Of a stretch of DNA of 64,000 bases, positions 45,853-64,000 are shown piece by piece. This DNA is from a virus (taxonomy: Duplodnaviria > Caudoviricetes). Within the stretch, counting starts at the first letter, position 1. Every line of letters begins with the position of its first letter. The position numbers and the translations under genes were made by a program. The stretch spans positions 1 to 64,000 of IMG/VR virus record IMGVR_UViG_3300026549_000051; one strand, 5' to 3'. A model generated the notes under the pieces. That model saw only the letters and a program-made list of their open reading frames with translations, had not been told where the DNA came from and did no database searches.

Positions 45853-45863
45853 TGCTTTTCCCC

Positions 45864-46773: not shown

Positions 46774-46775
46774 AA

Positions 46776-47483: not shown

Positions 47484-47568
47484 CCGAGTCCTTTCCAAAT
47501 TGTATTGTTATTATTTATAGTTTCCCCCTACCTTCATTTTACCATACATATTCGACCATGTGTATGGA

Positions 47569-47710
47569 GCAGATGGGCAATGGAACCAAGAACTTTTTGA
47601 CAAAAAGTTTATCAACTCACGAGGTACAAATGTGAATTTTTTGATGAAAAGTCTATGCGTAAAAGTGAAGGTAATACAACAAAGATTGTAAAAATACGCT
47701 ACCCATCTGC
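47569..47710. ncRNA. Candidate structured RNA (stem enclosing ~125 nt)
   Basis: GCAGATGGG (47569-47577) / CCCATCTGC (47702-47710) in 270-nt intergenic gap. Confidence 0.4.
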
Positions 47711-47770
47711 CTCTAGTTTGTGAAGAACCACCACGCTCTTTAACGCCTGACATGGCACGAAGGCATTTGT

Positions 47771-48139
47771 TTAGTGGAAGAAGCCTTTTGGCTTCGTATT
47801 GTCCGCGATAAGCGAGACCTTCTCGAGAATCTTGTTCAAGACCTCGATGACGATTTCAGCCTGAGCTTCCGTGAAATTGATTTCAAGTGGCGTGGTTACA
47901 GACTCGCTAATTGCCTCTGCAATTCTCTCCCCCTCGGTTTTACTAGAGGTGTTCTTTTGTAGGACAAAAGTTCGATATTCATCAAGGTCTTCTGCCTTCT
48001 TAATACGCCAGAATGTTGACTGGCTAATATTCATAGCTCGCTGGATCTCTCTGCCAGATAAGCCTGTGTCAATTAGTGTTTTGACTGCATTAAAACTATG
48101 CTCGTCAATTTTGCGATATTTACGAACCTTCTTGTTCAT
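47771..48139 (-). CDS. helix-turn-helix DNA-binding protein
   Basis: GLSGREIQRAMNISQSTFWRIK. Confidence 0.8.
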   Translation of the reverse strand: MNKKVRKYRKIDEHSFNAVKTLIDTGLSGREIQRAMNISQSTFWRIKKAEDLDEYRTFVLQKNTSSKTEGERIAEAISESVTTPLEINFTEAQAEIVIEVLNKILEKVSLIADNTKPKGFFH

Positions 48140-48203
48140 TTGTTTTCTCCAATTAAATTAATATTACATTCACTTTTGTTTGTGTTGTTTTAAACATATC
48201 ACA

Positions 48204-48863
48204 CTATTTTCCTTCAGTCAATTCCTCCTCCAATTTCTTGCACCAGTTCTTCTCCGAGAAGTCTGACTTGCCTTTTAAACAGGCGTAGATGTCATCTTCG
48301 ATAGTTCCCACCGACTTTTGTCTTTTGTAGGCGTCTCGCTTCTGCTTGAGCCTAGCATTATGGCGGCACTCATCGCTACAATATTTTGTTGTACCACTTG
48401 GGACAAATTCTTCGCCACAGAAACTGCAACGCGGATAATCGCCAGCTTTTATACGCTTATATGTTTTGGTGTACTTATAGCCATTATTTTTAAGCGACCT
48501 CCTATTTACCTCCCTTCTCCCATTAAGTCTACACTCGCTACTGCAATATGTATTATGTTTCTCATATGGAACAAATTTTTTTCCACAGAAACAACAGTAA
48601 GCTGTTCTTTTGACATACGGTGCTCTAATAGGCTCGTTATTTGCATGCCATTTCTTATGGCACTTCACGCAAAGCCAGGAAACTTCCAGAGGTTTATTAT
48701 AATCGTTATGGTGTGCTTCCACTTTCTCAGTAGAGCCACAGCATTCACACGGCATCTTAGCCATTGTCCCAGACTTAATCGCCTTACGGACTAATGAGTG
48801 AGCCCTGTGCTCAGCCCTGAACTTCATATATTGATCATGCGTTTTCTCTTGTTCTGTCTTCAT
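48204..48863 (-). CDS. HNH homing endonuclease with zinc-finger repeats, fused to a helicase-like C-terminus
   Basis: CECCG...EAHHNDY...WLCVKCH; CxxCG-x-x-F...YCS-x-ECR x2. Confidence 0.85.
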   Translation of the reverse strand: MKTEQEKTHDQYMKFRAEHRAHSLVRKAIKSGTMAKMPCECCGSTEKVEAHHNDYNKPLEVSWLCVKCHKKWHANNEPIRAPYVKRTAYCCFCGKKFVPYEKHNTYCSSECRLNGRREVNRRSLKNNGYKYTKTYKRIKAGDYPRCSFCGEEFVPSGTTKYCSDECRHNARLKQKRDAYKRQKSVGTIEDDIYACLKGKSDFSEKNWCKKLEEELTEGK

Positions 48864-50067
48864 TTTGACACCACACTTTCTCCGAAAAATCTTGCTTATT
48901 CTTTAAGCACCTCATAATATCCTTTTCTATTGTATCACAACAATAACAGTAGTAGAAGAACATCGGCTTAGTTTGCCCGATACGCTTAATGCGACCGCGT
49001 GCCTGTAATGATGTGCTATATGAGTAATTCGGCGATACCGAGCACCAGTAGTGCATGAACTGTAAGTTCAACGCTTCGCCACCACTAGCGTAGTGAGCGA
49101 CCACGATGTCATATTTGCCTATCGTATCAGGTGTAGGTATCTCATGGTGCTTACCATCAATTCGCCATATCTTCGTCCCCTTAGGCAGAGCCTTCTTGGC
49201 TATTTCGCAAACCACCTCTTCCTCTTCAATGTAATTACAGAAGAAGACGCAGTTATCGCCCAGCCCCTCGATGAACTCCGACAGCCACTCTTGCTTCTCC
49301 TTAGTGAAGCATATCTGCCTGAGGTAATGGCACAAGCCCATCGTGGTTTCGATGAACTCGCCATCCTCTTTGGTGCGGGTCTTCATAATCTTGCGATAGT
49401 TCTTTGGGGCTTTGAACTCAACCACCTTATGTGTTTCCTTTGGCAACTCCCTGAACATCTGAGAGGCATCAGGCGTGGTAACAATGTCATCCCACATCTT
49501 CTTCAACTCATCGACCCTTACATAGTGGTCTATCTCTGGGAAGCCTCGGTATGTATGGACTATGGCATAATTATTCATAAAGTCCGTCTTGTGCTTGACC
49601 TTCCCACACACTGTAAAGTATGTAATAAAGTCTTTCCAGTCGTCCCCAGGCGTGGCTGTGTAGCCAGTCCATACTGTGCAATGGTCGCAGATACGACGGA
49701 AGCCATACCCCATACCAGTCGTATATCCCTTGCACTTCTGCACCTCATCGAACGCGAAGGCATAATTGCCGAGTCGTAATAGAGGCAACTGCAATGAATA
49801 TTTATCCAGCTTGTGCCACGAGATTACCTCAAAACTTTCAAGACTGTCGAGCCATTCCTGACCGTTCCATAGCACGGCTTCCTTCTGCATATCACCTGAC
49901 CTAGCCTTAGTGGCTGTTGTAACGATTACAACACGCTTCCTGCCAGTATCTCTCAGCCAGTTAAACATCACGGCAGTCTTACCTGCACCAGTTGGCAGAA
50001 TGCAAATGCGACTCCCAGCGTCAAGATCGGCAACAGCCTGCTCTTGGAACTTATACAGGCTAGGCAT
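48835..50067 (-). CDS. SF2 (SNF2-like) helicase
   Basis: PTGAGKT, DEVQ, TATP, EALNLQ, QARGRIKRIGQ. Confidence 0.92.
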   Translation of the reverse strand: MPSLYKFQEQAVADLDAGSRICILPTGAGKTAVMFNWLRDTGRKRVVIVTTATKARSGDMQKEAVLWNGQEWLDSLESFEVISWHKLDKYSLQLPLLRLGNYAFAFDEVQKCKGYTTGMGYGFRRICDHCTVWTGYTATPGDDWKDFITYFTVCGKVKHKTDFMNNYAIVHTYRGFPEIDHYVRVDELKKMWDDIVTTPDASQMFRELPKETHKVVEFKAPKNYRKIMKTRTKEDGEFIETTMGLCHYLRQICFTKEKQEWLSEFIEGLGDNCVFFCNYIEEEEVVCEIAKKALPKGTKIWRIDGKHHEIPTPDTIGKYDIVVAHYASGGEALNLQFMHYWCSVSPNYSYSTSLQARGRIKRIGQTKPMFFYYCYCCDTIEKDIMRCLKNKQDFSEKVWCQNEDRTRENA

Positions 50068-50386
50068 AGTATTCGCTCTTGATACGAGTTTTCTTCTCTA
50101 AGATAGCACGGACTTCGTCTGATGTATTCGCCTGCATTACCTCAAAGATGAGTTCCTGCATGGCTTGCTCACGGCGTGCCTCGCGTCGGCGTCGGTTGCC
50201 TGATGCATTAGAAGCAATACGCTTCTTACGAAACTCGTCATCAGTATGGTAGCGATTAGTAATGTTCTTTGTGGTCGTTTTTGTGTGTGCCTTACGGCGA
50301 CATTCTTCCGAGCAAACTTGTGGCACTCTGCCACGCTTCTTCTCCACTTCAAACTCTTTGCCACAGATTTTGCATTTAACTAACAT
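50060..50386 (-). CDS. zinc-finger protein
   Basis: CKICGKEF...CSEECR. Confidence 0.75.
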   Translation of the reverse strand: MLVKCKICGKEFEVEKKRGRVPQVCSEECRRKAHTKTTTKNITNRYHTDDEFRKKRIASNASGNRRRREARREQAMQELIFEVMQANTSDEVRAILEKKTRIKSEYYA

Positions 50387-50841
50387 CGTCCGTTCCTTTC
50401 TGCTAGTTCATCTAGCGTATATTTTTGGTCTGATACCATATCTTGGATACACTCTTCCTCAAAGTCGGCGAGTGCATCTGCCAACCAGTCCCTCGCGTAA
50501 TATAGTATATCGCTATACTCTTCATCGGTTAGGTCAAGGTGTTGGTCTTCAATATAGTCTATGAGGTTGCCCTCACAGGCTTGCTCGCAGAGGTCTTCAA
50601 AGTTTTCAAAGTAATATTCAGTATGTCCCTCATCGTCCTCGCCAGCCCCATACTCAGCGTTGGCACGCAACCAACTGCGTAGGTTTTCCATATGTAAAGT
50701 CTTCGCATAAACCTGCTCGCCGATACGCTTGATGTCTGCTTCTTGAACAGCATTATAAAATGCTTTGTCGTACTTATGTGGCTCAGGCATGAGGTCATCA
50801 ATGCCCTCTTTAATCGCCAACAAATCTTTAATCTTGCTCAT
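50380..50841 (-). CDS. acidic hypothetical protein
   Basis: GGAGG RBS; Asp/Glu-rich. Confidence 0.75.
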   Translation of the reverse strand: MSKIKDLLAIKEGIDDLMPEPHKYDKAFYNAVQEADIKRIGEQVYAKTLHMENLRSWLRANAEYGAGEDDEGHTEYYFENFEDLCEQACEGNLIDYIEDQHLDLTDEEYSDILYYARDWLADALADFEEECIQDMVSDQKYTLDELAERNGRC

Positions 50842-51256
50842 CTTCGTTGTCCTCCACCTTATCAATAAACTGCTGTGCTTTGTTATAAAAATCGTCAAAC
50901 ATATCTTGGCACAACTCCAAATGTTCCTGTAAATGTTTTGGCTCGGCTGGGGCAGGGGCAGAAGATGATGATAGTGAAGCCCTAGTCATATCGAAGAGGG
51001 CTTTGTGAATATCGCCCTGTCGCTTGCCGAACTTTGCCATGTGGTTTTCAAGGCTATCGAAACTCCAATGCTCTTCGCCATCTCCCCAACCATTCTCATC
51101 TAGGGGTTCATTGCCTACCTCAATGTCGCAATGCCACTCGCCTTGCCCATCTCGGTTCTGGTCGCTCGCATAGATATAATAATGGTCATAGCGTTTAATG
51201 TCGTTTAATAGTCGGTGCAAGTCTGACACCTTCATTACAATATTCTTATCTTCCAT
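50828..51256 (-). CDS. hypothetical protein
   Basis: AGGAG RBS. Confidence 0.75.
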   Translation of the reverse strand: MEDKNIVMKVSDLHRLLNDIKRYDHYYIYASDQNRDGQGEWHCDIEVGNEPLDENGWGDGEEHWSFDSLENHMAKFGKRQGDIHKALFDMTRASLSSSSAPAPAEPKHLQEHLELCQDMFDDFYNKAQQFIDKVEDNEDEQD

Positions 51257-51266
51257 GGTCTTCTCC

Positions 51267-51752
51267 TTATAGGTCAGCAGTCATCATGCAATAACCTTTT
51301 TGTTTAAGTTCGTTATAGATATTCAAGCCTAACTGAACACGGCTCGCAGCCAACTCCTTCTCGCTACTAATAGGGTACATAACTGGCTTGTCATCCCCCA
51401 TGTGATAACCACATGCCTTATGCCCCATAGCGTCCTTAGTCTGTTCTTCGGTCAAGTAATACTTGGCTAAGTCTTCCCACACATAATTCCCCACATCGTC
51501 TAGTTCATACTTGCGTTCATCTTTTGGCACGCCCAGTATATCGTACTGTTTGTCTAATCGCTTCTTGATACGCTCGGCATCATAGCACTCGTAATCTACA
51601 TAGCATTCGCCGTAGCCATCATCCTCTCCCTGGTCGGCATCATCTGCTGGGACTTCGTTCATCCCATAAATATCTTTGGGGTCGGTGCTTGGTTGCACGG
51701 CAAACCAAAACTTACCTTCCCTGCCTGAATTAAAATAGTAATATCTTCCCAT
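51267..51752 (-). CDS. hypothetical protein
   Basis: GGAG RBS, own promoter. Confidence 0.8.
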   Translation of the reverse strand: MGRYYYFNSGREGKFWFAVQPSTDPKDIYGMNEVPADDADQGEDDGYGECYVDYECYDAERIKKRLDKQYDILGVPKDERKYELDDVGNYVWEDLAKYYLTEEQTKDAMGHKACGYHMGDDKPVMYPISSEKELAASRVQLGLNIYNELKQKGYCMMTADL

Positions 51753-51794
51753 AGTTTTTTCTCCAATTAGTTTTAATAGTTCCCCTCTGATTTA

Positions 51795-51823
51795 ATACTA
51801 GCACACTTGCTAACTATTGTCAA
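51795..51823 (-). promoter_or_regulatory. sigma70-type early promoter
   Basis: TTGACA-17-TAGTAT. Confidence 0.7.
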
Positions 51824-51825
51824 TA

Positions 51826-52065
51826 CTATTCTTCCATCTCCTTATATAATTCATTACGCAACTCGCTCAATGCATATGGCATGTGTCCATAGTTCATGTG
51901 CATTAGCCAAATCAACATGGCTGTTCGCATATGCTCTTCTCGTCCATCAATGATGGCTTCAATAACAGCACGCTCGCTGTGCCAGTTCTCATCGGTCAAT
52001 TTATCTAAGAATTGTTGCACGGTCATCTTATCTATTTCTGTGGCTGAGTTATTCCAGTATGCCAT
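51826..52065 (-). CDS. hypothetical protein
   Basis: AGGAG RBS. Confidence 0.75.
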   Translation of the reverse strand: MAYWNNSATEIDKMTVQQFLDKLTDENWHSERAVIEAIIDGREEHMRTAMLIWLMHMNYGHMPYALSELRNELYKEMEE

Positions 52066-52391
52066 TACTTATTCTCCTTTCTTAATTGCTTAACGCACTC
52101 ATAACATAAGGCACAATAATCTTCATCTTCTGCCATGATGTTATCAATTAAATCTTGGTCGTATTCAGGGTCAAGATATTCAACCCAACACAACTCTTCG
52201 CTAGGGTACAACGCCCCACACTTGTCGCAGATATTGAACTCTATCGGCATTAACACATCATCTATTGCTTCTATCGGTTCATCTCCCTCGTACTCTGCAC
52301 AACTAATCTCCAAATTGAGGTCATCAAAATAGCCTATGCTGTTGTGCCTTACTCGGCTCTGCAACTCTTCTATCTTCTCTTGTCGTGTCAT
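52065..52391 (-). CDS. acidic zinc-finger protein
   Basis: CDKC...CYEC. Confidence 0.75.
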   Translation of the reverse strand: MTRQEKIEELQSRVRHNSIGYFDDLNLEISCAEYEGDEPIEAIDDVLMPIEFNICDKCGALYPSEELCWVEYLDPEYDQDLIDNIMAEDEDYCALCYECVKQLRKENK

Positions 52392-52597
52392 AGTTCAATA
52401 TAATCTCCATCTTCCGTTATTACATTATGCCCTTGAAACTCCAAACGATACCACTCTTCGCCCTCTTGCCCACACTCTTTACACTTGTATGGGAAGTAGC
52501 ACATATCGTCTGTGTATTTAATCGGTTGGTAGTCCAAACTAATCTCCCCACATCTCGGACACTCGCCTTGTCTGTTCATATAGTCTTCTTTATTCAT
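52388..52597 (-). CDS. zinc-ribbon protein
   Basis: CPRC...CKEC. Confidence 0.75.
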   Translation of the reverse strand: MNKEDYMNRQGECPRCGEISLDYQPIKYTDDMCYFPYKCKECGQEGEEWYRLEFQGHNVITEDGDYIEL

Positions 52598-52760
52598 CTT
52601 CTTCCTCTGCTTTCTTATTAGCGTTTAATACTATTTCCACATCTTTAATCATGTCGTTGATATCGCCATAGCGACAACTGCCACCATCATTAAAATCTTT
52701 GATGTCATCAGCAAACCATAGCGACTGCAACTCCCAGTCAATTACTAGATATCTGCTCAT
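52590..52760 (-). CDS. small acidic protein (56 aa)
   Basis: Fills operon gap with overlapping start/stop. Confidence 0.6.
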   Translation of the reverse strand: MSRYLVIDWELQSLWFADDIKDFNDGGSCRYGDINDMIKDVEIVLNANKKAEEEDE

Positions 52761-52966
52761 CTTCCACTCCCATCTGTGGCTAGGTTAGCACCTGCCATCA
52801 AGTCCATCATGATATTCACATAGCGTTCTTTCTCTGCCCCCTCACTACACATAGCACAGCCATAAAAATACTTAACGGCTTCGGCTCGGTCTTCCCACTT
52901 ATCAATATGCCCATAGCATATGGTCGTGATATCTTCTTTTCCCTTGATTTCTTTTTTGCTTGACAT
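52757..52966 (-). CDS. hypothetical protein
   Basis: AGGAG RBS; SEGAEKERY. Confidence 0.75.
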   Translation of the reverse strand: MSSKKEIKGKEDITTICYGHIDKWEDRAEAVKYFYGCAMCSEGAEKERYVNIMMDLMAGANLATDGSGR

Positions 52967-52983
52967 TTTCTTCTCCTTTCTTA

Positions 52984-53259
52984 TTAATAGTCCAGCATTA
53001 CCCAGTCTAGGTCATCGTCTGTGTAGCCCCAAAAGTCCAACAACCTTTGTGCTACCTCTTCAAGTTCTAGGTCTTTGATATACTCAGATGTCATCATCTG
53101 CCCACCATCTTCTAGCACTACATCTTCCCCATCAACACCATATACTGATGTCATCATGTAGTCTTTCAAGCCTTCGGCTTCATCTTCTTTGGTCAAGTTA
53201 TCGCCAGTCCCCTCAACTGCCGTAATTAACTTGTTGATATCTCTAATAAAAAGTATCAT
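52984..53259 (-). CDS. highly acidic hypothetical protein
   Basis: AGGAG RBS. Confidence 0.75.
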   Translation of the reverse strand: MILFIRDINKLITAVEGTGDNLTKEDEAEGLKDYMMTSVYGVDGEDVVLEDGGQMMTSEYIKDLELEEVAQRLLDFWGYTDDDLDWVMLDY

Positions 53260-53723
53260 TACTTTTCTCCTAACCAGTCTGCTACTGTTTTATTACCGTT
53301 GCTAATACCATCAGCATATTCTTGGGCTTTGTTCGTTCCCATCATGCCATCAAGTTCTTGTAGTTTCTTATAGGTGTTCAACTGCTCTTCGGTCATGGCT
53401 GGCTTCTCTTTCTCCTTTTCTCGTTGAATAAAGTACAAGATGTCTTCGGCGTGCATTTCACAATACGCTTCTGATAACATATACTCCTGTGCCACAGCAT
53501 ACGCTTGCTTGTCGGTCAGTTTAATATCGTGGTTCTCTGCCACATACTCTACATCTTCCTTAACCCACTCCAAGTCTTCACGCTCTTTAATCTTGATATA
53601 CTCTTCACGCAAATCATGGGCTAGGGCTTCAATGCTCCATGATGGGTCATCTGCTTCGCTTTCGCCAAAGTTCTTCTTAACCCACTCATACAAAAATGTC
53701 TTAAATGCTTCTTCTACATTCAT
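53259..53723 (-). CDS. acidic hypothetical protein
   Basis: Start at MNVEE after AAGGA. Confidence 0.75.
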   Translation of the reverse strand: MNVEEAFKTFLYEWVKKNFGESEADDPSWSIEALAHDLREEYIKIKEREDLEWVKEDVEYVAENHDIKLTDKQAYAVAQEYMLSEAYCEMHAEDILYFIQREKEKEKPAMTEEQLNTYKKLQELDGMMGTNKAQEYADGISNGNKTVADWLGEK

Positions 53724-53724
53724 C

Positions 53725-53985
53725 TTAAAAGTCCTTTCCGATATATACTCGTTTAAGTAATTTACTCTTGCCGTTGCCAAACAAATTGGCTTGGCATTTT
53801 GGGCATAGCCCAGTCTTGATGAACTCACGCTCCACAGCGTTCAGTTCTCCAAACAACTCTTGAATATACCCATGCCCATGCTCATACTCATAGAGTTTTT
53901 TCATCTGTTCTTCATCTAGTGGCAAGCCATAGTCATCACTACAACTCGGACATCGTATAATCAATTCGTCTTCGCCTACCATCAT
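53725..53985 (-). CDS. zinc-binding protein
   Basis: CPSC...ERE...TGLCPKC. Confidence 0.75.
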   Translation of the reverse strand: MMVGEDELIIRCPSCSDDYGLPLDEEQMKKLYEYEHGHGYIQELFGELNAVEREFIKTGLCPKCQANLFGNGKSKLLKRVYIGKDF

Positions 53986-54224
53986 GCTTCTTCTCCAATT
54001 AACTCAAAATCTTCATTATATAGTTCCACCCCTAATGCGTGTGCCAGCTCATTTAGCACCCACTCTTTGCCACTATTAAAATAATATTCATCTCTATACT
54101 TACGCTTATCTCCTTTCTGCTTTTTAATCGTATCGTTCAAGGCTTCTAACTCTGCCTTGTATTTTCGGCGTATAATCTTAGCCAATTCACTCTGCTTCAT
54201 AAAACTCCCTTTCGCTTTTATCAT
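53982..54224 (-). CDS. hypothetical protein
   Basis: Operon ORF; start may be the second Met. Confidence 0.65.
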   Translation of the reverse strand: MIKAKGSFMKQSELAKIIRRKYKAELEALNDTIKKQKGDKRKYRDEYYFNSGKEWVLNELAHALGVELYNEDFELIGEEA

Positions 54225-54405
54225 TAGCCTTAATGCTTAGCACATACTCAACACCGTCAATAACTATCGCTATCTTCGGCTCACCATTATCTTGCCAGTC
54301 ATTAGCCACACACATATCTTTTGCCATGCTTGGCTCAAACTGTTCTTGCTCATCATTATCTGCTAACTTGTCGTATATCATGTCCATTAATTTATACTTG
54401 TCCAT
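54187..54405 (-). CDS. hypothetical protein
   Basis: Operon ORF. Confidence 0.7.
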   Translation of the reverse strand: MDKYKLMDMIYDKLADNDEQEQFEPSMAKDMCVANDWQDNGEPKIAIVIDGVEYVLSIKANDKSEREFYEAE

Positions 54406-54408
54406 ATC

Positions 54409-54948
54409 TTATAGCCTTTCTTCTCTTAAAATGCTTCGCAACTCATAGTGTGCCACGCCGTCCATAAGCCCATATGCTTCTTCACGCAATGCCACGATTT
54501 TGTTCGCTATCTCATCAAAATTACTCAGCACATCTTCTAACTCATTAGCAATATGCTTATAGTATTCAATACGCTTGCTAATCTCTGCTTCTATCTCATC
54601 TGGTGTCAATTCAATGCAAGGGTGTAAATACTGCCCACGATTTATTAGCCGTCCTTGCTTCTCATACTCTTTCGCTTCTTCCTTGTCAAACACAGTCTTA
54701 GTGATGTTAATGGTGTCATCAAAATAATGCCCATTGTCATCACGCTTGCACACACTAATCTCTTTTTCGCTTGCGTTGTATCTGTTATTGCGAATTGCCC
54801 CCTTAGTAAAGTTCTGTGCAAGGTTCTTGAAGTCCTTGCCGTCCTTAGTCTTATAGCGTTCAATATCTGCCCATGCTTCAATAAGCACATCACATTCATG
54901 CTTGCGTTGTTCTAGTTTTTTCTTCGCTTGTTCTGCGTAATAGTCCAT
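54409..54948 (-). CDS. hypothetical protein
   Basis: AAGGA RBS, own promoter. Confidence 0.8.
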   Translation of the reverse strand: MDYYAEQAKKKLEQRKHECDVLIEAWADIERYKTKDGKDFKNLAQNFTKGAIRNNRYNASEKEISVCKRDDNGHYFDDTINITKTVFDKEEAKEYEKQGRLINRGQYLHPCIELTPDEIEAEISKRIEYYKHIANELEDVLSNFDEIANKIVALREEAYGLMDGVAHYELRSILREERL

Positions 54949-54979
54949 AATATTCCTTTCACTTTTACTTTATAATCTT

Positions 54980-55008
54980 AGTATAGCAAACTATTCTTTA
55001 ATTGTCAA
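54980..55008 (-). promoter_or_regulatory. sigma70-type early promoter
   Basis: TTGACA-17-TATACT. Confidence 0.8.
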
Positions 55009-55267
55009 TACTATTTACTCCATAAGTTATAATAAACTTTACATTTTTAATTGTGTCGGTGTCATAGCCACCACCTGCCACTAGTGCTAAATCATGCTTA
55101 ATATAACTATCAATAGCATCCTTGCACCAAAAACTATCTGTATCTATGTGGTATATATCGCAAAACTCAAACTCGTTATTGCGTTCTGCTTCGTCAATAT
55201 ATTTTAAGTCAGGGTGGTTCTTCTTTACCTTATACTTAATTACACCCTTAACATTTATAATTGCCAT
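54998..55267 (-). CDS. hypothetical protein (first gene of early arm)
   Basis: 89 aa ORF; DLALVAGGGY. Confidence 0.75.
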   Translation of the reverse strand: MAIINVKGVIKYKVKKNHPDLKYIDEAERNNEFEFCDIYHIDTDSFWCKDAIDSYIKHDLALVAGGGYDTDTIKNVKFIITYGVNSIDN

Positions 55268-55269
55268 AG

Positions 55270-55738
55270 TGTTTATACCCTTTTGCGATTATTAATAACA
55301 TTAAAGCCGTTTATAGTTATCGCATTACCATAAACGGCTTATTGTATTATCAATTTTCACATGAAATTATTTGGCTTATGCTATACGGCGTTTCTATGTC
55401 TATACTTTACCCATAAGCCCATTTTTCTCGTAAAATTATGGTATTAGTCGGTCATCTATTATATGCCTTAGTCTATACCCACTTAAAACGCTAGTGTTAT
55501 GGCTTGCTATTGCCCACTAGTCAAATTGTCAAAATACAGGACGCATAATTCTAGTTATGCTAGCCAGCCCCTTACCCTATACACGATTACATCATTCTTT
55601 TTGATGTTGATAATAGCATCAAAAACATTGTCTGCTTACGCTATCTGTCGGGGTGCTTTGAATAATAAAATCTCAGTTGCATAATTTATAGTTGTCATGC
55701 TTAACTATGTGCGATAAATTAATTAATTAACTTATCAT
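55270..55738 (-). ncRNA. ~470-nt multi-hairpin leader/ncRNA candidate
   Basis: No credible ORF; at least five hairpins; near-consensus promoter just upstream. Confidence 0.5.
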
Positions 55739-55744
55739 AATTAC

Positions 55745-55773
55745 ATTATAAGCCATATGTGCTAAAAAGTCAA
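55745..55773 (-). promoter_or_regulatory. sigma70-type early promoter
   Basis: TTGACT-17-TATAAT. Confidence 0.8.
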
Positions 55774-56134
55774 GCATATTTTTAAAAAATGTTATAGTTT
55801 TTTGTTTAAGCCTTGATTAAATTACTTATGCTAATCTAAAAAACTTAATACGCTAATTTAGTTTAACGGCTTTAATGTGCTTAGATAGTTATTTATTAAC
55901 TTATCTTGATTAAATTATAGCACACTTATTCAATGTTGCATAGACTTGATTTTTAAGATTTTTGATGTTCTAATATAGACTATATGCCAAAATTAGATTA
56001 AAACAGTAATAACACATAATATGCAATTTTGAGCCTACTTTTAAAAAAAACGGCTTTACTTACTTAATAATTTATTAATTTTGTCAAGTTTAGCATAATC
56101 ATCAATAGCAAAAGCAAAAGCATTAGCAATATAA

Positions 56135-56201
56135 ACGCATGGACGCATACACACATACATGGGGAAGCCGACGCCACCTCCTCCTTTTAATCACTATCAT
56201 C
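56135..56201. repeat. Diverged repeat module copy 1 (copy 2 at ~57101-57174)
   Basis: ACGCA..ACGCA..TACAT-x-G-x-GG-x-AGCCG..ACCTC..TAA..TCACTATCATC. Confidence 0.6.
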
Positions 56202-56358
56202 GCATTTATCCTACGGATAATTGCTTCTTAGCCTCCAGCTCTTGCTCCTCAGCCATCATAGAAGACACGAAGACGTGTTCTCTAGTTGCCTTGTGGGGTG
56301 CAGGGGGTTTTGACCATTAAAATCGCTCTGAGGGGCTCTGGTGAGCTCAGAGAGGCAA

Positions 56359-56386
56359 CAAAAAAGCCCCCTGGTTGGGGGCTGTT
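56359..56386 (-). terminator. Intrinsic terminator
   Basis: AGCCCCC/GGGGGCT with A-tract on plus strand. Confidence 0.75.
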
Positions 56387-56391
56387 CTTGC

Positions 56392-56649
56392 TTAGATGCC
56401 GAAGCGGATGCGGGCGTACTCTCGATCGAGAGGTGCTGGTTTCATATGGTTTGGCTCGACTGCTCTCCAGGTGTAGTAAGCTTCGACTTCCCATTCGTCA
56501 TCTCTGAGACCAGACTTGTTATAAGCGACATAAGAGACGGGTTCGTCTTTATACATATAACCAGTGTCGCCATATTCGCATTCAGTCAATCCGTGCTTCT
56601 CGGCGTACTCTTTAGCTTTGTAGTAGTCAGTAAAATAAATGGTTTCCAT
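56392..56649 (-). CDS. hypothetical protein
   Basis: AGGAG RBS. Confidence 0.75.
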   Translation of the reverse strand: METIYFTDYYKAKEYAEKHGLTECEYGDTGYMYKDEPVSYVAYNKSGLRDDEWEVEAYYTWRAVEPNHMKPAPLDREYARIRFGI

Positions 56650-56696
56650 TGTAGTTTTTTCTCCTGTTGCCCCTCCGAAGAGGGGCGTTATTGTTA

Positions 56697-56939
56697 TTAT
56701 TTTGTGCTGTTTATAGCTTCAATTATCTGTTTTCTATCTTTATGCACGGCGTTCCAGAATTTTTCTGGAGAGTAGTTTTTGTTTTGTTTTCTTAGTTCGT
56801 TGTCTATTGCGTCGTGCAGTTCTTCGAGGAGGAGTCCGTCTTCAGCGTTGCCGTCACCAATGATGAAGCACCCGTCCTTAAGATGAAAACTTAAAATTGA
56901 TATGAGTTTTGCTATAACTTGGAAGTCTTTTCGAGTCAT
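56697..56939 (-). CDS. hypothetical protein (MTRKDF-type phage early protein)
   Basis: MTRKDF..IA...N.N...KF..A; AGGAG RBS. Confidence 0.75.
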   Translation of the reverse strand: MTRKDFQVIAKLISILSFHLKDGCFIIGDGNAEDGLLLEELHDAIDNELRKQNKNYSPEKFWNAVHKDRKQIIEAINSTK

Positions 56940-57207
56940 AACTTTTTCTCCTGTTTAGTTGTTAACTTTCGAGATGTTTTTTCTTCACATCTCTTATTAT
57001 AAGGATATCAAATTATTTTAAAATTGTCAATAACTTTTTTACACTTTTTTGCACTTTTTTTATGCATAACATTCATCATCATGGCGTGCGTGTAACAAGC
57101 AACGCACCAACGCACCAACTCATATATACATAGAGGCAGCCGCGGACCTCTTTTCCTCTAATATCACTATCATCAGATTCCTCTCCCCGAAGGGAGAGGA
57201 TCGAGAG

Positions 57208-57381
57208 CTATTGCACTTCTGCTTCCTCCTTCACATCTTCGATGATGTGCCAATCTTCGTCGCAATGGTTGTGCTCGAAGATATCGAACTCGGTTAGAGT
57301 CATGCCCCAGCATTCTGTATCACAGTCTGGGAGGACATTTTTCTTCATGCGGTTGATTTCGCTTCTAGTAATAAATAACAT
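57208..57381 (-). CDS. small acidic protein (57 aa)
   Basis: AGGAG RBS, followed by hairpin. Confidence 0.65.
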   Translation of the reverse strand: MLFITRSEINRMKKNVLPDCDTECWGMTLTEFDIFEHNHCDEDWHIIEDVKEEAEVQ

Positions 57382-57422
57382 AGTTTTTTCTCCTTACTGG
57401 GGCGGTTGCCCGCCCCTGTTAA

Positions 57423-57569
57423 TTAATATTCCCACCAGTGTTTATGTATGCCTCGTTTTTCGTCCTCGGCTTTTCGGGCTTTTATCTCCTTGGCGCAGGT
57501 GTAAATCGTCCAAAGGCAGAAGCCGAAGCAGATGCCGTTAATGAGGTCGATACTGTTAAGGTTTTGCAT
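57423..57569 (-). CDS. small single-TM protein (48 aa)
   Basis: AGGAG RBS. Confidence 0.6.
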   Translation of the reverse strand: MQNLNSIDLINGICFGFCLWTIYTCAKEIKARKAEDEKRGIHKHWWEY

Positions 57570-57631
57570 TTTTCTCCTTATGCCACCCCCGTGGGGCGCT
57601 TGGGGGGTGGCTAGTTATTAAAATTTAGCAG

Positions 57632-57904
57632 TTACGCTTTGATGCCTTCGTGCATCTCCTTAGCCTTGCGTATGGCTTCTTCTTTATCGTCGGCTCGCCA
57701 GATGTGGTAAAACTCCATACCTTGGTCGAGATAGTAACGGTCAAGGCTTCCATATGTGAGGTCATAATCTCGCATATCTGTTTTACGCCAGCCTTGTATG
57801 AGTTGCGTAATTAGCGCATGGGGTAGCTCGCAAGGGCTTGCGATATACTCCCAGTTATCTGTTACAGCCTGTTTGATGGCTACTACGATGTAAGATGTGT
57901 TCAT
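57632..57904 (-). CDS. hypothetical protein
   Basis: AAGGAG RBS; promoter TTGCAA-17-TACCAT at 57950-57978. Confidence 0.75.
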   Translation of the reverse strand: MNTSYIVVAIKQAVTDNWEYIASPCELPHALITQLIQGWRKTDMRDYDLTYGSLDRYYLDQGMEFYHIWRADDKEEAIRKAKEMHEGIKA

Positions 57905-57979
57905 TTTAAACTCCTTGATATTAATTTACTTGGTCGCCCCACTAATTACATGGTAGCACACTTTTAAAATATTTGCAAG

Positions 57980-58510
57980 CCTAAAATAACAGGGGTGGAT
58001 GCTATGATTTTTAAAAATCTTTTACGATTTTACGAGCTAAAATGCTAAAAAATTTAGCGATATTTTACGCCCATAATTTAGACGGGGCAGAGACCCCCAG
58101 GAGTATAGATATAACCCCTCGCCCCAGCGAGGGGTGGTTTGGGGTGTCATACCCCTTTCCGCCTTCTTTTCGCCTTCTTTATACCTCTTTTTATTATTAA
58201 TGCCCCCCTCTATAACCTTGACAACCCCTGCCATAAATATGTTGTAATATGGAAAAATATATGTCTAAATTTAGCTTAAGCTCAATAAAAATGGCCGATT
58301 TTGGCAAAAATATATGTCAAAATGTGCGAAATATATGTCAAAAATGGAGCATAAGCATGATGTTTTGGCATATATATTACAAAAGCTTATTGACAAGTCT
58401 GAAATTCGGTGTTCTGGCTAAATCCAATTTAGACATATATTTTTAAATTTAGACATATATATTCCGCAAAAAAGCATATATTTTACTATATATTTGCATA
58501 TATTTGTCAA
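57980..58510. promoter_or_regulatory. Putative replication origin of unit 2
   Basis: AAATATATGTC x3 direct and several inverted copies; GC-rich cluster; same position as unit-1 origin. Confidence 0.6.
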
Positions 58511-58629
58511 CCCCCTCTCGGCCGTCTAATTCCGTGCCATATTCACATTTATGTGTTGACACCACAACCATCGGCCATGGTATAGTGGAAGTATCAACAA
58601 CAAATAACATGCAGCGAAAGGAGAGAGGC

Positions 58630-58893
58630 ATGAAAAGTGAACTTAGCCAACGTATCAGCACATTAGAGGAGCTGAACGCGACACCAGAGCTGAGCGCTCA
58701 GATGGCGAACTATGAGATCAACATTCTAGCCATCACGGACAGTTATATATTATATGAGTTCTCATATATTAACGATGAGACCAAAATGAAAAAATGGGCG
58801 AAGCGGCTGGCGCCGCTGCAGGGGGGCATCACGAGTACATACGAGTATCTTATAAAGACTGTTAAACGTGAGCGCGAGGCGATGGGGCAGTAA
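58630..58893 (+). CDS. hypothetical protein (homologue of 1597)
   Basis: Synteny and motif similarity. Confidence 0.75.
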   Translation: MKSELSQRISTLEELNATPELSAQMANYEINILAITDSYILYEFSYINDETKMKKWAKRLAPLQGGITSTYEYLIKTVKREREAMGQ

Positions 58894-58894
58894 T

Positions 58895-60649
58895 ATGGAT
58901 GGTGCGGAGGTAGCGGCGGTCCCGATGGCCACCGTGAATGACTTACTGAATGCGGCGCCGGACTTGAAGATGAGCGCGGCGGACTGGACTCGGAAGCGGA
59001 CACTGGAGGCGGTGCGCAAACAATACGAGTTTATATATGTGGACGCGGCGAGGGCGGTGTATTATCGGCCGATGCCAGACGAGATGAACCCGGAGGAGGC
59101 GTTTAAGAGGCTGACGGACATAAGGGCGAGTCAGCTCATCGTGAGTATTTGCCGGAAGCTGTATCCACACAAGGTGATGGCGCCGAGGACCGTGACGGAG
59201 CTGAGTGATACAATTAGCCTATACACAGACCGGCACTTGGACCGGCTGAACGACAATATAATAAAGGTAGGAGCGGACATGTATTGGGACGAGGAGAAGG
59301 CCGCCTTGACCGAATTTCCGGATGGGGTGTGCATGCGTGAGCTGTTTGACGCCAGTTCTCTGGACGAGATTAAGCTGAACATACACGACATATCAACAGC
59401 GTATATGAGAGGGGTGTATAAGAAGACCCTTGCGCACTTAGAGAAGAATAACGGGAATATTACGCCGTGGGAGCTGTTGGGCCCCAAACAGCAGACAGAG
59501 ATGGGGTGCAGTATGTTGTCGCTGGACTCGGCTGCACTAGCGCCGTTTTGGGTGTGGGCGAATGAAGACCTGGACACCTTTAATGATCTGTTGAAGGCGA
59601 CTGCGTCTATTTTTATGCTCCACAAGCCGAAGGGGGCGTTTATCTTAATTGGGCGTACGCGCAATGGCAAATCGAGTTTCATTAAGATGCTCCATACCCT
59701 CCTAGGGCGGAATAATACCTCAGCGGTGAAACTGGCTGACCTCGAGGACCCCCATTTTGTATATGACCTTACTACTACTATGCTGAATGCGCCGGATGAA
59801 GATGACGAGGGAAAAGGGGCGGAGTTGAAACGCAGCCAGAGCTATTTCAAGTCTATATCTGCGCATGAGCCGATTCCACTGAAGCTGCTCTTCTCTTCTG
59901 AGCCAGTGAAAGTCTCGACTCAGTTCATGAGCTTTTATCCGATGAATAAGTTGCCGGAGTGGACTGGCAGTGGGAAAGAGGCATGTATGCGTCGCTCGTT
60001 AATTCTGATGTTCAACAATGACCTCAGTAAATTCGACAACAACGGTCGGAATTTCGAGAAGGAGACTTATACCGAGGCCTTCTATAGTGAGCTGTTGGGG
60101 GTTGTGCTAGCGATTGCGCATTACTATCGTGACAGACCGCTGGAGTTCTCGACTACGATGCAGGCGAATCGCGAGAGCGTATCTGAGGCGATTGACTCGG
60201 CCACGACCTACCTCAATTTGTTTGTTAAATACTTTAGCGGCTATCAGGTCACGCCACTAGTGGATGACTATGAGCTGTGGTGCGTGGAGAACGGATATCA
60301 GTATAACCGCAAGGAGTTGAAGCAGAAGCTCTTGACCGCCAATTCGCAGAAGAGCACGGCGTATTCTGACGGTGCTGTGCTTACCGTATACAAGTTCCCT
60401 GGCACGAAGGACAGCAAGTTGCCGAACTTTATGCCACAGTATATGGTGCCGGAGTTCAAGCGCTATGTGTCAGACATTATTAATACGGCGACTGTGGGGG
60501 TCGGGCCGAATAAGCAGCCGGCTCGCAGTGTGGTGGCTATGCTCGAGGAGTATTATGCGACCCACGATAACCCAAACGAGTTGCCTGAGCAGATGCAGTT
60601 CGAGGGGCCAGTGGTGGACGGCGACATCGAGGACTTAATCAATGAGTAG
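58895..60649 (+). CDS. D5/P4-type superfamily 3 helicase
   Basis: GRTRNGKSS, NAPDE; homologue of 1846. Confidence 0.85.
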   Translation: MDGAEVAAVPMATVNDLLNAAPDLKMSAADWTRKRTLEAVRKQYEFIYVDAARAVYYRPMPDEMNPEEAFKRLTDIRASQLIVSICRKLYPHKVMAPRTVTELSDTISLYTDRHLDRLNDNIIKVGADMYWDEEKAALTEFPDGVCMRELFDASSLDEIKLNIHDISTAYMRGVYKKTLAHLEKNNGNITPWELLGPKQQTEMGCSMLSLDSAALAPFWVWANEDLDTFNDLLKATASIFMLHKPKGAFILIGRTRNGKSSFIKMLHTLLGRNNTSAVKLADLEDPHFVYDLTTTMLNAPDEDDEGKGAELKRSQSYFKSISAHEPIPLKLLFSSEPVKVSTQFMSFYPMNKLPEWTGSGKEACMRRSLILMFNNDLSKFDNNGRNFEKETYTEAFYSELLGVVLAIAHYYRDRPLEFSTTMQANRESVSEAIDSATTYLNLFVKYFSGYQVTPLVDDYELWCVENGYQYNRKELKQKLLTANSQKSTAYSDGAVLTVYKFPGTKDSKLPNFMPQYMVPEFKRYVSDIINTATVGVGPNKQPARSVVAMLEEYYATHDNPNELPEQMQFEGPVVDGDIEDLINE

Positions 60650-61082
60650 TCTAGCTGATGCGATTATCCAGCAAAATGAGCGCAAGGGCGCTTCCCCTGA
60701 GGGGAATACTCCCGAGGGGTATTATCGTGACGACATGGGGTATTTAGTAGAAGAAGACCTCGTGGAGGATAAGGAGAGGTATGCGGAGTATGTGCTGCTT
60801 CGCATACTGAGGCTGCACCATAATATATATATGCGCTATGGGCGGCTGTACTGTGGGCACCACCTACTGGAGTGCAATATGCAGGAGGCGCTGGAGCTGG
60901 CGGACTCACCGAGGGTGAGGCTGAACCCTGGGCAGGTGGCGTGGATTTTTAACCGCCTGAGGGAGCTGGCGCCAGAGATAGACGAGACCAAGATCCTGAT
61001 TGCTGATGGGGTATACTGGGACATGGATAAGGCCGAGCTGGTCGATTTAGATGAATCAATTAAGTTAACAACCATGAGGTAG
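60642..61082 (+). CDS. hypothetical protein (homologue of 3591)
   Basis: PEGYY-x-DDMG conserved. Confidence 0.8.
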   Translation: MSSLADAIIQQNERKGASPEGNTPEGYYRDDMGYLVEEDLVEDKERYAEYVLLRILRLHHNIYMRYGRLYCGHHLLECNMQEALELADSPRVRLNPGQVAWIFNRLRELAPEIDETKILIADGVYWDMDKAELVDLDESIKLTTMR

Positions 61083-61085
61083 GAA

Positions 61086-61379
61086 ATGTTGGAGAGAGAT
61101 TTTAAGAAGAATTTTCAGAAGAGACTAAAGAAAGAAGTGAAGCCGTTGGCGATTTTACAATATAAACAGGACGCCACGACAGTTGCTGGCTTTCCTGATA
61201 CCCTGGTGATACTTGAAGGTATAACGATTTTTATAGAGTACAAAAAGAGCAAGACGGCTAAATTCCGTCCCGGGCAGAAGGAGTGGAATGCGAAACTCAA
61301 TGAGAATGGTCACTTTGCCTTTATCTGTTACCCGGAGAACGCAGATAAGATTATCGAGGAGATAAAGAGGATAGCATGA
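61086..61379 (+). CDS. VRR-NUC domain nuclease (HNH-free allele)
   Basis: GFPD, FIEYK, PGQKEW. Confidence 0.85.
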   Translation: MLERDFKKNFQKRLKKEVKPLAILQYKQDATTVAGFPDTLVILEGITIFIEYKKSKTAKFRPGQKEWNAKLNENGHFAFICYPENADKIIEEIKRIA

Positions 61380-61648
61380 AATATATTATCAGATGCACAT
61401 GTGGGGGCGTGAAGACTAAGATGGAGGCAGCGATGCAGCTGATTGCCCCGGGGGAGCCACTCCCCCCGGAGGTGAAAGGCGGCGACGCCATGAGAAAACT
61501 GGCGGAGAAGTGGCCAAACACTAACTTCGGTAATCATCTATTGGTGCTTGCGAAGAAACATGGGCGCTACTGCTATTATGTTGAGATAACTGATAAGGGC
61601 GACATTAAGGATATGCGCGACCTGATGACTGGCAGGAGGATGTACTAA
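61376..61648 (+). CDS. CxC-motif protein A
   Basis: IRCTCGG. Confidence 0.75.
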   Translation: MKYIIRCTCGGVKTKMEAAMQLIAPGEPLPPEVKGGDAMRKLAEKWPNTNFGNHLLVLAKKHGRYCYYVEITDKGDIKDMRDLMTGRRMY

Positions 61649-61956
61649 TGTTGAAGGCGGTGTCATGCCAGTGTGGCAGTAGCGACAATCTGATACGGGG
61701 GAAGCTGGCGAAGTTCCACTGTAGCCAGGCGCTGACCATTCCGATCATCAAGGGGAAAGAGAAATCTCTCTCGGCATTAAATACGCTTCCGCAATTCCCA
61801 GAAGTCTCAGGCTTACGGCTACATATCGAGGCTCACTCGAAGTGGGCTATTATTATTGGCTATGACGATGAGCGTCTGAAGTGGGTGGATTTAGCGAACG
61901 GGTCTTATCTTAAAAATGACGTGGACGCTGAACTCCTGCTAACACATTTTGCATAA
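61648..61956 (+). CDS. CxC-motif protein B
   Basis: VSCQCGS. Confidence 0.75.
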   Translation: MLKAVSCQCGSSDNLIRGKLAKFHCSQALTIPIIKGKEKSLSALNTLPQFPEVSGLRLHIEAHSKWAIIIGYDDERLKWVDLANGSYLKNDVDAELLLTHFA

Positions 61957-62003
61957 AAAATTTAATTATTATACTATGTAATTAGCAATAAGGAGGGAAA
62001 TCC

Positions 62004-62438
62004 ATGCAACCAACTTTACCAAATGGCTTCATTACAATAGAAGAAGCAGTGAAGCTCATTCAGTCCGATACGCGCTCGGACGCAAAAGTAGATACCAGCT
62101 GGCTAGTCAGACATATTGACTGGGTGGAAGAGGCACATAATTTCCGTATTCCACTCATGAAAACTACTAGCGATAAGAAGGTCGTAGGCATCGGTTCTAA
62201 GTATGTCGCCGTCATGACTTCTTATGATAAAGAGGTCTTAAAGAAGGCTATTCGTGACCATTACCGTGATATGGTCGGTCATGAATATGACGCGCCTGTA
62301 ACGAAGGCTGTCTCAACCGTCGCTGATGAAGAGCAGACAGGTGGCAACGTTCGCCCACGCAAGAGCAAATCGATTGCGAAAGAGGGTGCCGTTATCGGTA
62401 CTGGTGAGACTATTAAGACTAATGGTGCTGACTTATAA
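62004..62438 (+). CDS. hypothetical protein (homologue of 5836)
   Basis: Sequence similarity. Confidence 0.85.
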   Translation: MQPTLPNGFITIEEAVKLIQSDTRSDAKVDTSWLVRHIDWVEEAHNFRIPLMKTTSDKKVVGIGSKYVAVMTSYDKEVLKKAIRDHYRDMVGHEYDAPVTKAVSTVADEEQTGGNVRPRKSKSIAKEGAVIGTGETIKTNGADL

Positions 62439-62650
62439 TGGAAAACCTAGAGTATCTAAAGGGGCTGATTAAGCGCATAGAGGACTCGGTTAAAATTGTT
62501 AAAAAGGCAGAATCGCCAGACCAGATATCCGAGCAGGAGCGCTTAACCCACCCTGTATTAAAAGAAATGCAGATGGTCACGCCTAGGGTGTGGGATGACT
62601 ATATCCGTGTAACCCGTGACCGACGCAGAGAAATTGCGGAAGGTAAATAA
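62438..62650 (+). CDS. hypothetical protein (homologue of 6332)
   Basis: Sequence similarity. Confidence 0.8.
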   Translation: MENLEYLKGLIKRIEDSVKIVKKAESPDQISEQERLTHPVLKEMQMVTPRVWDDYIRVTRDRRREIAEGK

Positions 62651-62913
62651 TGGACGGAGAGGTGATTGAGGCCAAGGTCAGAGACCATGCCACTATAGAG
62701 GATGTTAACGTCCATCTCCTAGACAAGCTCGATGAGTTGATTGACGATATCAATCCGAAGGATGCTGATATGGTGCGCGCTTTAACTGAGAGCGTCGCGA
62801 AGCTCAACGCCTCTCTCAAGGGGAATAATATCTTTACCCCTCAAGAAACCGAAGAAGAGAGAAGGGAGCGTGAGGCTCAAGAGGCGATTCTCGGTGCAAT
62901 GAAAGGAGAATAG
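62650..62913 (+). CDS. putative terminase small subunit
   Basis: Homologue of 6547. Confidence 0.5.
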   Translation: MDGEVIEAKVRDHATIEDVNVHLLDKLDELIDDINPKDADMVRALTESVAKLNASLKGNNIFTPQETEEERREREAQEAILGAMKGE

Positions 62914-64000
62914 TGGGAAAGCTCCTACTTAATGACTATCAAGACGATAATATCTTAACTAATGACCAGATAAAGAAGGCTTTGTCTGGTGATTTTGATG
63001 GGTTTAAGTATTTCTTCGAGAACTGTATTCTCATCCAAGACCGCGATACCCGTCAGTTTATCCACCCGAAGATGAATAAGGGGCAGGAGATGATTGCCCG
63101 TACGATTCTGGGGTATGTGGATAAAAACAGTCGAGCTACTGTGCACAAGGAGTGCGTAATCTTGGGGCCCCGTCAGTTCGGTAAATCTACTCTGCTGACA
63201 GCGATCGCTAACTATATTGTGGCTTATGTGGCTGGGATGGAGAACCTTAACGTCGTGCATACGATGCACCAGGCGACTGCGGCAGCCAAATACTTCAAGC
63301 AGAAGATTGCCCCGATTGTGACGAGTGTTCATCCGTCTATTTTCCCGACAATCGAGCGCGATACTCTCGGCACCTCTACTCTATTGAAATATAAAGACGT
63401 CAAAGGGATTCGTCGTGGCGGATATTACGAGGTTACGTCGGCGGGCTCTAACTCTGTCCGTTCCGGCACTGTATCAGTCTGGCTTTGTGACGAGCCGTCT
63501 GAATACCGTAATCCGGGGGCAGTTGAGGACTCTGTGTCTGGTGCTATCTCTAGCTATGGCTGGTCGTTCACTGCATATATCGGTACTTTCTCTGACCGCT
63601 TGACGGAGTATTTCTTGAATAAAATCCAGACCGCACTTGATAACCCAGAAGAGATGGAGCTCGTGTTTATTCCGTGGTTTTTGGTGTATGGGCGCAAGGG
63701 AGATGGAGCTGGCCTAACAGAGGCTAGCTACACTGACTATGACAAAGAGGTCGTCATCCCAGAGATGCAGAAGTACGGGATACCGAGAGAAGAGTGGCAC
63801 GACAAGATTGGCTGGTACCATCGTCGTGCGCTTCGTACCTCGAAGATGAAGTTTGAGTTCCCGACGTCGATCGAGGATATCTTAGCTTTAACCGCCGATC
63901 GGTCGGTGTTCAATAAGGACTCTCTTGATAAACAGGAGAAGAACATCATCGCAGGTGGGACTTATAGAATCGTTACAGACAATCAGACTGGAAAGGTTGA
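62913..64000 (+). CDS. terL: terminase large subunit (truncated by window end)
   Basis: GTG start, GPRQFGKST, WLCDEPSEY; missing from ORF track because no stop falls in the window. Confidence 0.92.
   Translation, partial: MGKLLLNDYQDDNILTNDQIKKALSGDFDGFKYFFENCILIQDRDTRQFIHPKMNKGQEMIARTILGYVDKNSRATVHKECVILGPRQFGKSTLLTAIANYIVAYVAGMENLNVVHTMHQATAAAKYFKQKIAPIVTSVHPSIFPTIERDTLGTSTLLKYKDVKGIRRGGYYEVTSAGSNSVRSGTVSVWLCDEPSEYRNPGAVEDSVSGAISSYGWSFTAYIGTFSDRLTEYFLNKIQTALDNPEEMELVFIPWFLVYGRKGDGAGLTEASYTDYDKEVVIPEMQKYGIPREEWHDKIGWYHRRALRTSKMKFEFPTSIEDILALTADRSVFNKDSLDKQEKNIIAGGTYRIVTDNQTGKV

Follow-up and report, generated by a model that had tools for sequence, protein, structure and literature searches.

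Contigs in IMG/VR that exceed twice the expected length, with the same genome repeated 2.0–6.8 times, have been judged probable assembly artefacts (CheckV, PMC8116208). Unitigs common to mosaic phage genomes also cause chimeric contigs (Phables, PMC10104058). The IMG/VR record analysed here is one linear contig of 111,102 bp, of which positions 1–64,000 form the window, the whole stretch of DNA under analysis; IMG/VR classes it as linear and not a provirus, with a CheckV completeness of 100%. Like CheckV-type concatemers, it measures about twice the family genome length and carries whole genomes in direct order. Concatemers of that type, however, repeat the same genome and have a k-mer frequency of ~2 or more, whereas the copies here are different species-level genomes that share almost no k-mers, so a k-mer concatemer test would miss the record.

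Repeat-mediated chimeric contigs contain an exact repeat twice, one genome length apart, and excision yields two complete genomes of unequal depth that match independent monomers. The record agrees with them in the repeat, its spacing and the match of the excised genomes to monomers, but it is built of siblings (65–91% identity), which makes the product look like a tandem duplication and not like an obvious chimera. A Campbell-type cointegrate, from a single crossover between two circular replicons, would show this order too, each joint being marked by a direct repeat of the common segment, but here the depths are unequal and the relatives are all monomers. The repeated segment (X) also bears the mark of phage mosaicism, being identical with a sharp edge amid ~70% identity, as in module exchange. 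Mosaicism at X is ordinary real biology; it explains a misled assembler, not the tandem arrangement.

Results

The two halves of the record are collinear end to end in a self-blastn of all 111,102 bp, at 65–91% nucleotide identity and an offset of 55–59 kb, with many unalignable stretches between them. The record consists of two complete sibling phage genomes in direct order and not of a terminal repeat; copies of the same genome, or a terminal redundancy, would be near-identical. The original prediction, that the gene order of 1597–8512 recurs at 58630–64000 in something other than a terminal repeat, is thereby confirmed, and tblastx likewise joins 54–64 kb to 1–10 kb in one collinear chain. 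Within this chain, the primase-like ATPases share 54% amino acid identity in the core and 39% overall, and the TerL proteins 77.6% over 375 aa; matches extend to the VRR-NUC region and to several small ORFs. The gene that had been labelled a helicase is a DUF5906/primase-type ATPase. Features of the window are listed in Table 1, among them a divergent intergenic region (57905..58503) with iteron-like copies that is a candidate origin or operator.

Six-frame searches of the record for tyrosine and serine recombinases (PF00589, PF00239) gave no match, and all control genomes were positive. Neither a resolvase, an integrase nor host-like DNA was found in the record, in agreement with the earlier reading of no recombinase and no host DNA, and the window contains no tRNA. 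Megablast of positions 1–20,000 matched no GenBank phage, and IMG/VR scans with the 123-aa protein at the record start, the 63-aa protein at its end and a 36-mer from the start all came back empty.

Table 1. Coordinates and strands of features in the 64,000-bp window
Feature	Position	Strand	Basis or remark
Genome I right-hand part ('A-start')	1..10496	+	ORF calling, family searches, monomer linkage
Bidirectional terminator, A-start	115-151		Terminator prediction
123-aa gene, leftward, A-start	169-540		Followed by divergent intergenic region
79-aa ORF, A-start	1597-1836
Primase-type ATPase (DUF5906), A-start	1846-3588		VRR-NUC/HNH region next
TerL, A-start	6800-8512
383-aa protein, A-start	8720-9871
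Repeat X, copy 1	10497..10789	+	Inside 121-aa ORF 10446-10811; exact-match scan, alignment
Genome II body ('A-rest')	10790..54380		MazG-like gene; structural genes including 2233-aa protein
Endolysin, A-rest	40566-41735	-
Leftward early operon	43710-55267		Contains SF2 helicase, 48835-50067
Block common to record 110,137-110,849	53982..54405	-	Exact 34-40-mers
Segment 'c'	54381..56340	-	Natively contiguous with the DNA that comes next
Leftward genes of segment c	54409-54948; 54998-55267		179 aa; 89 aa
Non-coding AT-rich stretch of segment c, 1.07 kb			Best leftward promoter-like site 55773-55745
Intrinsic terminator, end of genome II short leftward operon	56365..56383	-
Five small leftward ORFs (85, 80, 57, 48, 90 aa)	56392..57904	-	Acidic early-type, no known family
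Divergent intergenic region	57905..58503		Iteron-like AAAATATATGTC(A/T)AAA copies, both orientations, 58253-58510
Genome II start module ('B-start')	58504..64000	+	One small ORF first, further small ORFs
Primase-type ATPase, B-start	58868-60649
VRR-NUC-like gene, B-start	61086-61379
TerL, 5' part, B-start	62913-64000+

The head-to-tail junction had been placed at 56.0–57.3 kb. Contigs of the source run (X1; Logan, k=31, covering 46–64 kb) include one of 10 kb that runs from 54,341 to beyond 64,000 with 0 differences. Three other studies also cross the point, with contigs at 56,044–56,381 (X2), 55,675–56,374 (X3) and 55,951–56,673, the last joined to 58,211–62,753 (X4). Segment c and the 56.25-kb point are bridged in six independent relatives (L036, L040, L042, L052, L053 and G004), with single HSPs running across 56.25 kb in L036 and L042, and a promoter-like site and a terminator occupy the expected places nearby. 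A single phage accounts for all of 46–64 kb as native, unbroken DNA, and the 56.2-kb point falls in an ordinary intergenic stretch of genome II that leads from the leftward early operon to the start module. A division of the record into units at 1–56 kb and 56–111 kb is wrongly phased. The check proposed for 56.0–57.3 kb, spanning reads and no step in coverage, would be passed, but passing it does not show that the dimer is real.

K-mer overlaps or terminal repeats among the record start, the record end and 54–58.6 kb were limited to chance 12–13-mers and the 34–40-mers at 54.06–54.38 kb, and no att-like repeat was present at 55–58 kb or between the record ends and that region. By eye, the first 30 bases of the record have a 12-mer inverted match at ~56,190, which we judge to be chance. 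An initial model placed the crossovers at the common 34–40-mers (54.06–54.38 and 110.2–110.8 kb), in whose block at 53982–54405 the k=31 source-run contigs break. It was dropped because single reads span such short matches, because the depths misfit a clean swap and because a longer repeat, combined with the relatives, accounts for all the observations.

That repeat, X, is an exact 293-bp match between 10,497–10,789 and 66,257–66,549, identified by exact-match scan and alignment. Its second copy begins 2,257 bp past the window end, 55,760 bp from the first, and this spacing is about one family genome length (monomers of 54,741–59,902 bp). It is by far the longest exact stretch common to both genomes (the next measure 82, 78 and 62 bp), and a twofold exact repeat of this length exceeds the typical k-mer or read size. 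Identity is 100% throughout X and stops abruptly at its right-hand edge, in surroundings of ~70% identity, and relatives combine modules at the same edge. The 121-aa ORF that holds it has no Pfam, PHROG or PDB relative, and an IMG/VR scan gave nothing for a 30-mer from X. Cutting the record at X yields two ~55.5-kb genomes: genome II (10,497–66,256) and genome I (66,257–111,102 followed by 1–10,496). We propose X as the assembly crossover node.

Independent single-genome relatives are collinear with the genomes obtained by this cut. All six (G001, G002, G004, L027, L041 and L053) are monomers of 48–60 kb. G001 spans 54,868 bp with a 127-bp end overlap, closing into a circle of 54,741 bp (CheckV 100%); further single genomes measure 54,836, 59,571, 59,902 and 59,065 bp. 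Genome II is represented by G004, L041 and L053. Over its entire length, G004 (54.8 kb) is collinear with 59,003–66,550 and then 10,384–56,227, its best matches falling on A-rest for 23.7 kb versus 1.5 kb on B-rest. L041 is 87–90% identical to B-start and 87.9% identical to 11,392–13,303, and L053 has the same arrangement, with B-start linked to A-rest.

Genome I is represented by L027, G002 and, mostly, G001, in all of which A-start is linked to record positions 66.5–110.8 kb and not to 10.8–54 kb. L027 follows the order 103,880–110,677, then 1,077–10,789 (89–96%), then 66,550–70,286, where its identity is 93.6% versus 77.5% to A; over 67,091–70,286 it is likewise 93.6%. G002 runs from A-start into 67–97 kb. 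The cis phasing of the uncut record occurs in none of the six relatives. Runs X5–X24 contain 0.19–0.25 of the sampled words, values from which no habitat or strain conclusion is drawn.

Depth in the source run was read from the same Logan contigs. Genome II stands at 32.5 over 46–54 kb (version A; contig 46,058–54,088) and at 42 over 54.3–64.4 kb. The genome I values come from two short unitigs: 25.2 for the B version at the 46,001–46,039 bubble and 20.3 for the B version between 54,201 and 54,337. A common 78-mer node has a depth of 57.9, roughly the sum of both versions. Since the putative genome II differs in depth between its two parts, the sample must contain at least a third genotype or recombinants, and two clean circles understate the complexity of the real population.

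Discussion

The repeat, its spacing, the native 46–64 kb region, the two monomer arrangements and the unequal depths were all observed, and the most likely reading is that the record follows a figure-8 assembly path that runs through two phages present together. Two distinct but related, circularly assembling genomes of ~55.5 kb, with an identical X in common, would have been present in one bovine gut (rumen) sample. The path would begin inside genome I, arrive at X (10,497–10,789), exit there into genome II and go once round it, from 10,790 to 66,256. On meeting X again at 66,257–66,549, it would complete genome I through 66,550–111,102 and end one short gap before its own start. We infer that the cis links across X arose in the assembler and not through recombination. 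Among the four options first listed, a chimeric contig is the best supported, and tandem integration and ancient duplication both fall away.

A heterodimeric cointegrate or hetero-concatemer, formed by a single homologous crossover at X during co-infection by genomes I and II and kept as a replication intermediate or episome, is an unlikely alternative. It would give exactly the topology of the record (part of I, X, II, X, part of I) with a 293-bp direct repeat at each joint, and the identity of X amid ~70% shows that DNA was exchanged recently, so that the two lineages meet in the same cells. A repeat of 293 bp should not normally defeat a paired-end assembler; that the assembler chose the cis path hints weakly at some cis-linked molecules, and the depths can be decomposed with up to ~13x of a true dimer beside monomers. 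The parts are nevertheless not equimolar (32.5, 42, 25.2 and 20.3), an observation that concerns the bulk of molecules only. The relatives also argue against such a molecule, as all six are monomers, one of them a closed 54.7-kb circle, and a head sized for ~55–60 kb, to judge by the monomers, could not package 111 kb. Direct repeats of 293 bp would moreover resolve readily, and a short-read assembly reads the same from a cointegrate as from a graph walk.

We give very little credence to an ancient whole-genome duplication, or to end-to-end pasting of two separately assembled contigs. Either would produce the twofold length and the collinearity, and pasting would fit the finding that the record ends and the 56-kb point correspond to one and the same part of the genome. 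A duplication is contradicted by other monomers that are closer to the copies (L027 at 89–96%, L041 at ~88%) than the copies are to each other (65–91%). Pasting at 56 kb is contradicted by the independent k=31 source-run assembly and by three other studies, all of which run through the point, and phasing by the relatives puts the breaks at X. Less credible still are tandem prophages, two related temperate phages side by side with trimmed host flanks: two complete genomes do follow each other directly in the same orientation, but no recombinase was detected in six frames where every control scored, the linear, non-provirus record is free of host DNA and of att-like repeats at 55–58 kb or between its ends and that region, and free monomer genomes carry the supposed boundary as native intergenic sequence.

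The record serves mainly as a data-quality warning: scored as 100% complete in IMG/VR, it holds two genomes and would mislead studies of genome size, of duplicated genes or of 'paralogue' pairs within it. For the phages themselves, the remaining biology is modest. One bovine gut sample contains both sibling lineages, which turn up again in independent metagenome data sets, with bovine gut as the origin of the close matches. In recent time the lineages have traded a 293-bp gene segment, at a sharp mosaic edge. If the record were a true cointegrate, common enough in co-infected cells to be assembled, it would capture phage recombination between species directly, as it happens in nature.

Results

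The window comprises positions 1-64,000 of a 111,102-bp IMG/VR record, a single contig of class linear with a CheckV completeness of 100%, which occurs in full in a bovine gut metagenome run from 2018. The claimed recurrence of gene order is borne out by a tblastx collinear chain between 54-64 kb and 1-10 kb and by self-blastn of the whole record, in which the collinearity of both halves extends over their full length, with DNA identities of 65-91%. The TerL copies share 77.6% identity across 375 aa, the primase-type ATPase copies (family matches DUF5906 and PHROG 'DNA primase') share 54% amino acid identity in the core and 39% overall, and the VRR-NUC region and small ORFs match as well. In the first half the endolysin gene, encoding Amidase_2 and PG_binding_1 domains, is a minus-strand gene at 40.3-41.8 kb; its second-half counterpart is on the plus strand, at 82.5-83.9 kb. 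The related public contig G004 has the first-half arrangement and G002 the second-half one. The tail-fibre region is far longer in the second half. Tyrosine and serine recombinases are absent from the whole record, with positive controls scoring, and a tRNA search of the window returned none.

The point at ~56 kb, originally taken as the genome junction, is native DNA. In the source run, a single independent k=31 Logan contig spans 54,341-64,000 and beyond with 0 differences, and contigs from metagenome runs of three other studies span 56,044-56,381 (X2), span 55,675-56,374 (X3) or link 55,951-56,673 with 58,211-62,753 (X4, 6.6 kb). Among related public contigs, L036 and L042 each give one alignment running across 56.25 kb, and the 55.7-56.2 kb segment adjoins the 57-66 kb module in L040, L052, L053 and G004. 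Because source-run, other-study and public contigs cross this point, 46-64 kb is contiguous DNA of one phage. A 1.1-kb stretch of AT-rich non-coding DNA separates the final gene of the leftward early set (54,998-55,267) from the small leftward ORF that opens the following block (56,392-56,649).

In an exact-match scan of the record, one repeat stood out: 293 bases shared without mismatch by 10,497-10,789 and 66,257-66,549, spaced by 55,760 bp; the exact repeats ranking below it measure 82, 78 and 62 bp. The repeat lies within an ORF of 121/124 aa that matched no known family, and at the repeat's right edge identity gives way abruptly to unalignable sequence. Cutting at the repeat yields two genomes. 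Genome II is 55,760 bp long (10,497-66,256); genome I joins 66,257-111,102 to 1-10,496 and totals 55,342 bp, to which a gap left by the assembly must be added.

Family members assembled alone measure 54.7-59.9 kb, and G001, because its ends overlap by 127 bp, is a closed 54,741-bp circle. G004 (54,836 bp) follows 59,003-66,550 and then 10,384-56,227 over its full length and shares first-half-specific traits, the location of the endolysin among them. L041 matches 58.4-66.1 kb at 87-90% and 11.4-13.3 kb at 87.9% identity, and L053 has the order of these two. The 59,902-bp contig L027 comprises 103.9-110.7 kb, 3.9 kb of its own DNA and 1,077-10,789 at 89-96%, and past 10,789 continues directly into 66,550-70,286 (93.6%, versus 77.5% for the first-half copy), an order also present in G002 and most of G001. 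With the bases of each of six relatives assigned by best hit, four were cleanly 'trans' and two had mixed start modules; the 'cis' phasing first proposed (units 1-56 and 56-111 kb) occurs in none of the six and is abandoned. By this sequence comparison, the relatives confirm the phasing predicted by cutting at the repeat.

Source-run contigs were compared with 46-64 kb of the window. Depth was 32.5 for the contig at 46,058-54,088 and 42 for that at 54,341-64,393; in a bubble at 46,001-46,039, the second-half version had a depth of 25.2 and the other version 35.5, with their shared 78-mer node at 57.9, about the sum. With the second-half version at 20.3 over 54,201-54,337, the depths of 32.5, 42, 25.2 and 20.3 mean that the record parts are not equimolar. 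The source run shows more than two genotypes or recombinants.

Coordinates of regulatory, repeated and variable features
Feature	Position	Strand	Remarks
Best leftward promoter-like site of the 56-kb region	55,773-55,745	minus	11/12 consensus positions
Intrinsic terminator	56,383-56,365	minus	closes short leftward operon 57,904-56,392
Equivalent terminator near record start	115-151		within first 170 bases of record
Iteron-like AAAATATATGTC(A/T)AAA copies	58253-58510		direct and inverted; just upstream of small ORF and primase-type ATPase
Perfect inverted repeat among iteron-like copies	58253-58271 / 58426-58444		19 nt
HNH-cassette site	48318-48948		exactly 629-630 bp missing in X2 (depth 108) and X3 (depth 16) contigs; one letter between sides
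Early-operon indel	51832-52390		557 bp skipped by an X2 contig (depth 51); four letters between sides
Presence/absence site	54202-54340 vs record 110357-110784		exact 34-40-mers on both flanks
Endolysin	40335-41815 vs record 82480-83916	minus vs plus	78-83% identical
81-bp tandem repeat array	record 89169-89620		inside long second-half tail-fibre region; copies 83-86% identical
Hypervariable stretch between early operon and start module	1-1600; 55268-58500; L004 1-4540; L027 5317-9226		2-4 kb, made up of small ORFs and AT-rich sequence

The iteron-like copies form a putative origin of replication or operator array. Since the X2 and X3 contigs skip the 48-kb site, alleles without the HNH cassette occur in other samples, the pattern expected of a mobile homing cassette. 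The early-operon indel, a further polymorphism, removes most of a 108-aa ORF (52065-52391). At the presence/absence site, the second genome in record order, G004 and a contig of run X2 carry an extra 152-aa Cys-rich ORF (CxxC pairs), in place of which the first has 139 bp. In the family-wide hypervariable stretch, similarity between close relatives is undetectable; three contig ends (record start, record end and G004 right end) lie in or beside it.

Discussion

The simplest account, and probably the correct one, is that the record is an assembly artefact. Two circular genomes would touch at the 293-bp node in a figure-8 graph, from which the assembler would output one path, running from part of genome I through the repeat, around the whole of genome II and through the repeat again into the remainder of genome I, with its ends where the less abundant genome is AT-rich and hypervariable. 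The record resembles the over-long IMG/VR contigs that the CheckV authors judged probable assembly artefacts (PMC8116208), and Phables describes how unitigs common to mosaic phage genomes give rise to chimeric contigs (PMC10104058). A real cointegrate, formed by a single crossover at the repeat, is unlikely: its predicted sequence would equal the record's exactly, and the depths leave room for a true-dimer minority of up to about 13x, but for the bulk of molecules the unequal abundance of the record parts speaks against it. Tandem prophages, duplication or plain pasting are, even jointly, very improbable.

Two sibling phage lineages coexist within a single sample of bovine gut. Segments related or nearly identical to theirs occur both in metagenome contigs deposited independently and in contigs from three other studies, of which two carry the label bovine gut and the third terrestrial metagenome. 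The 293-bp gene segment, with its sharp mosaic edge, was recently exchanged between both lineages, an instance of ordinary phage mosaicism.
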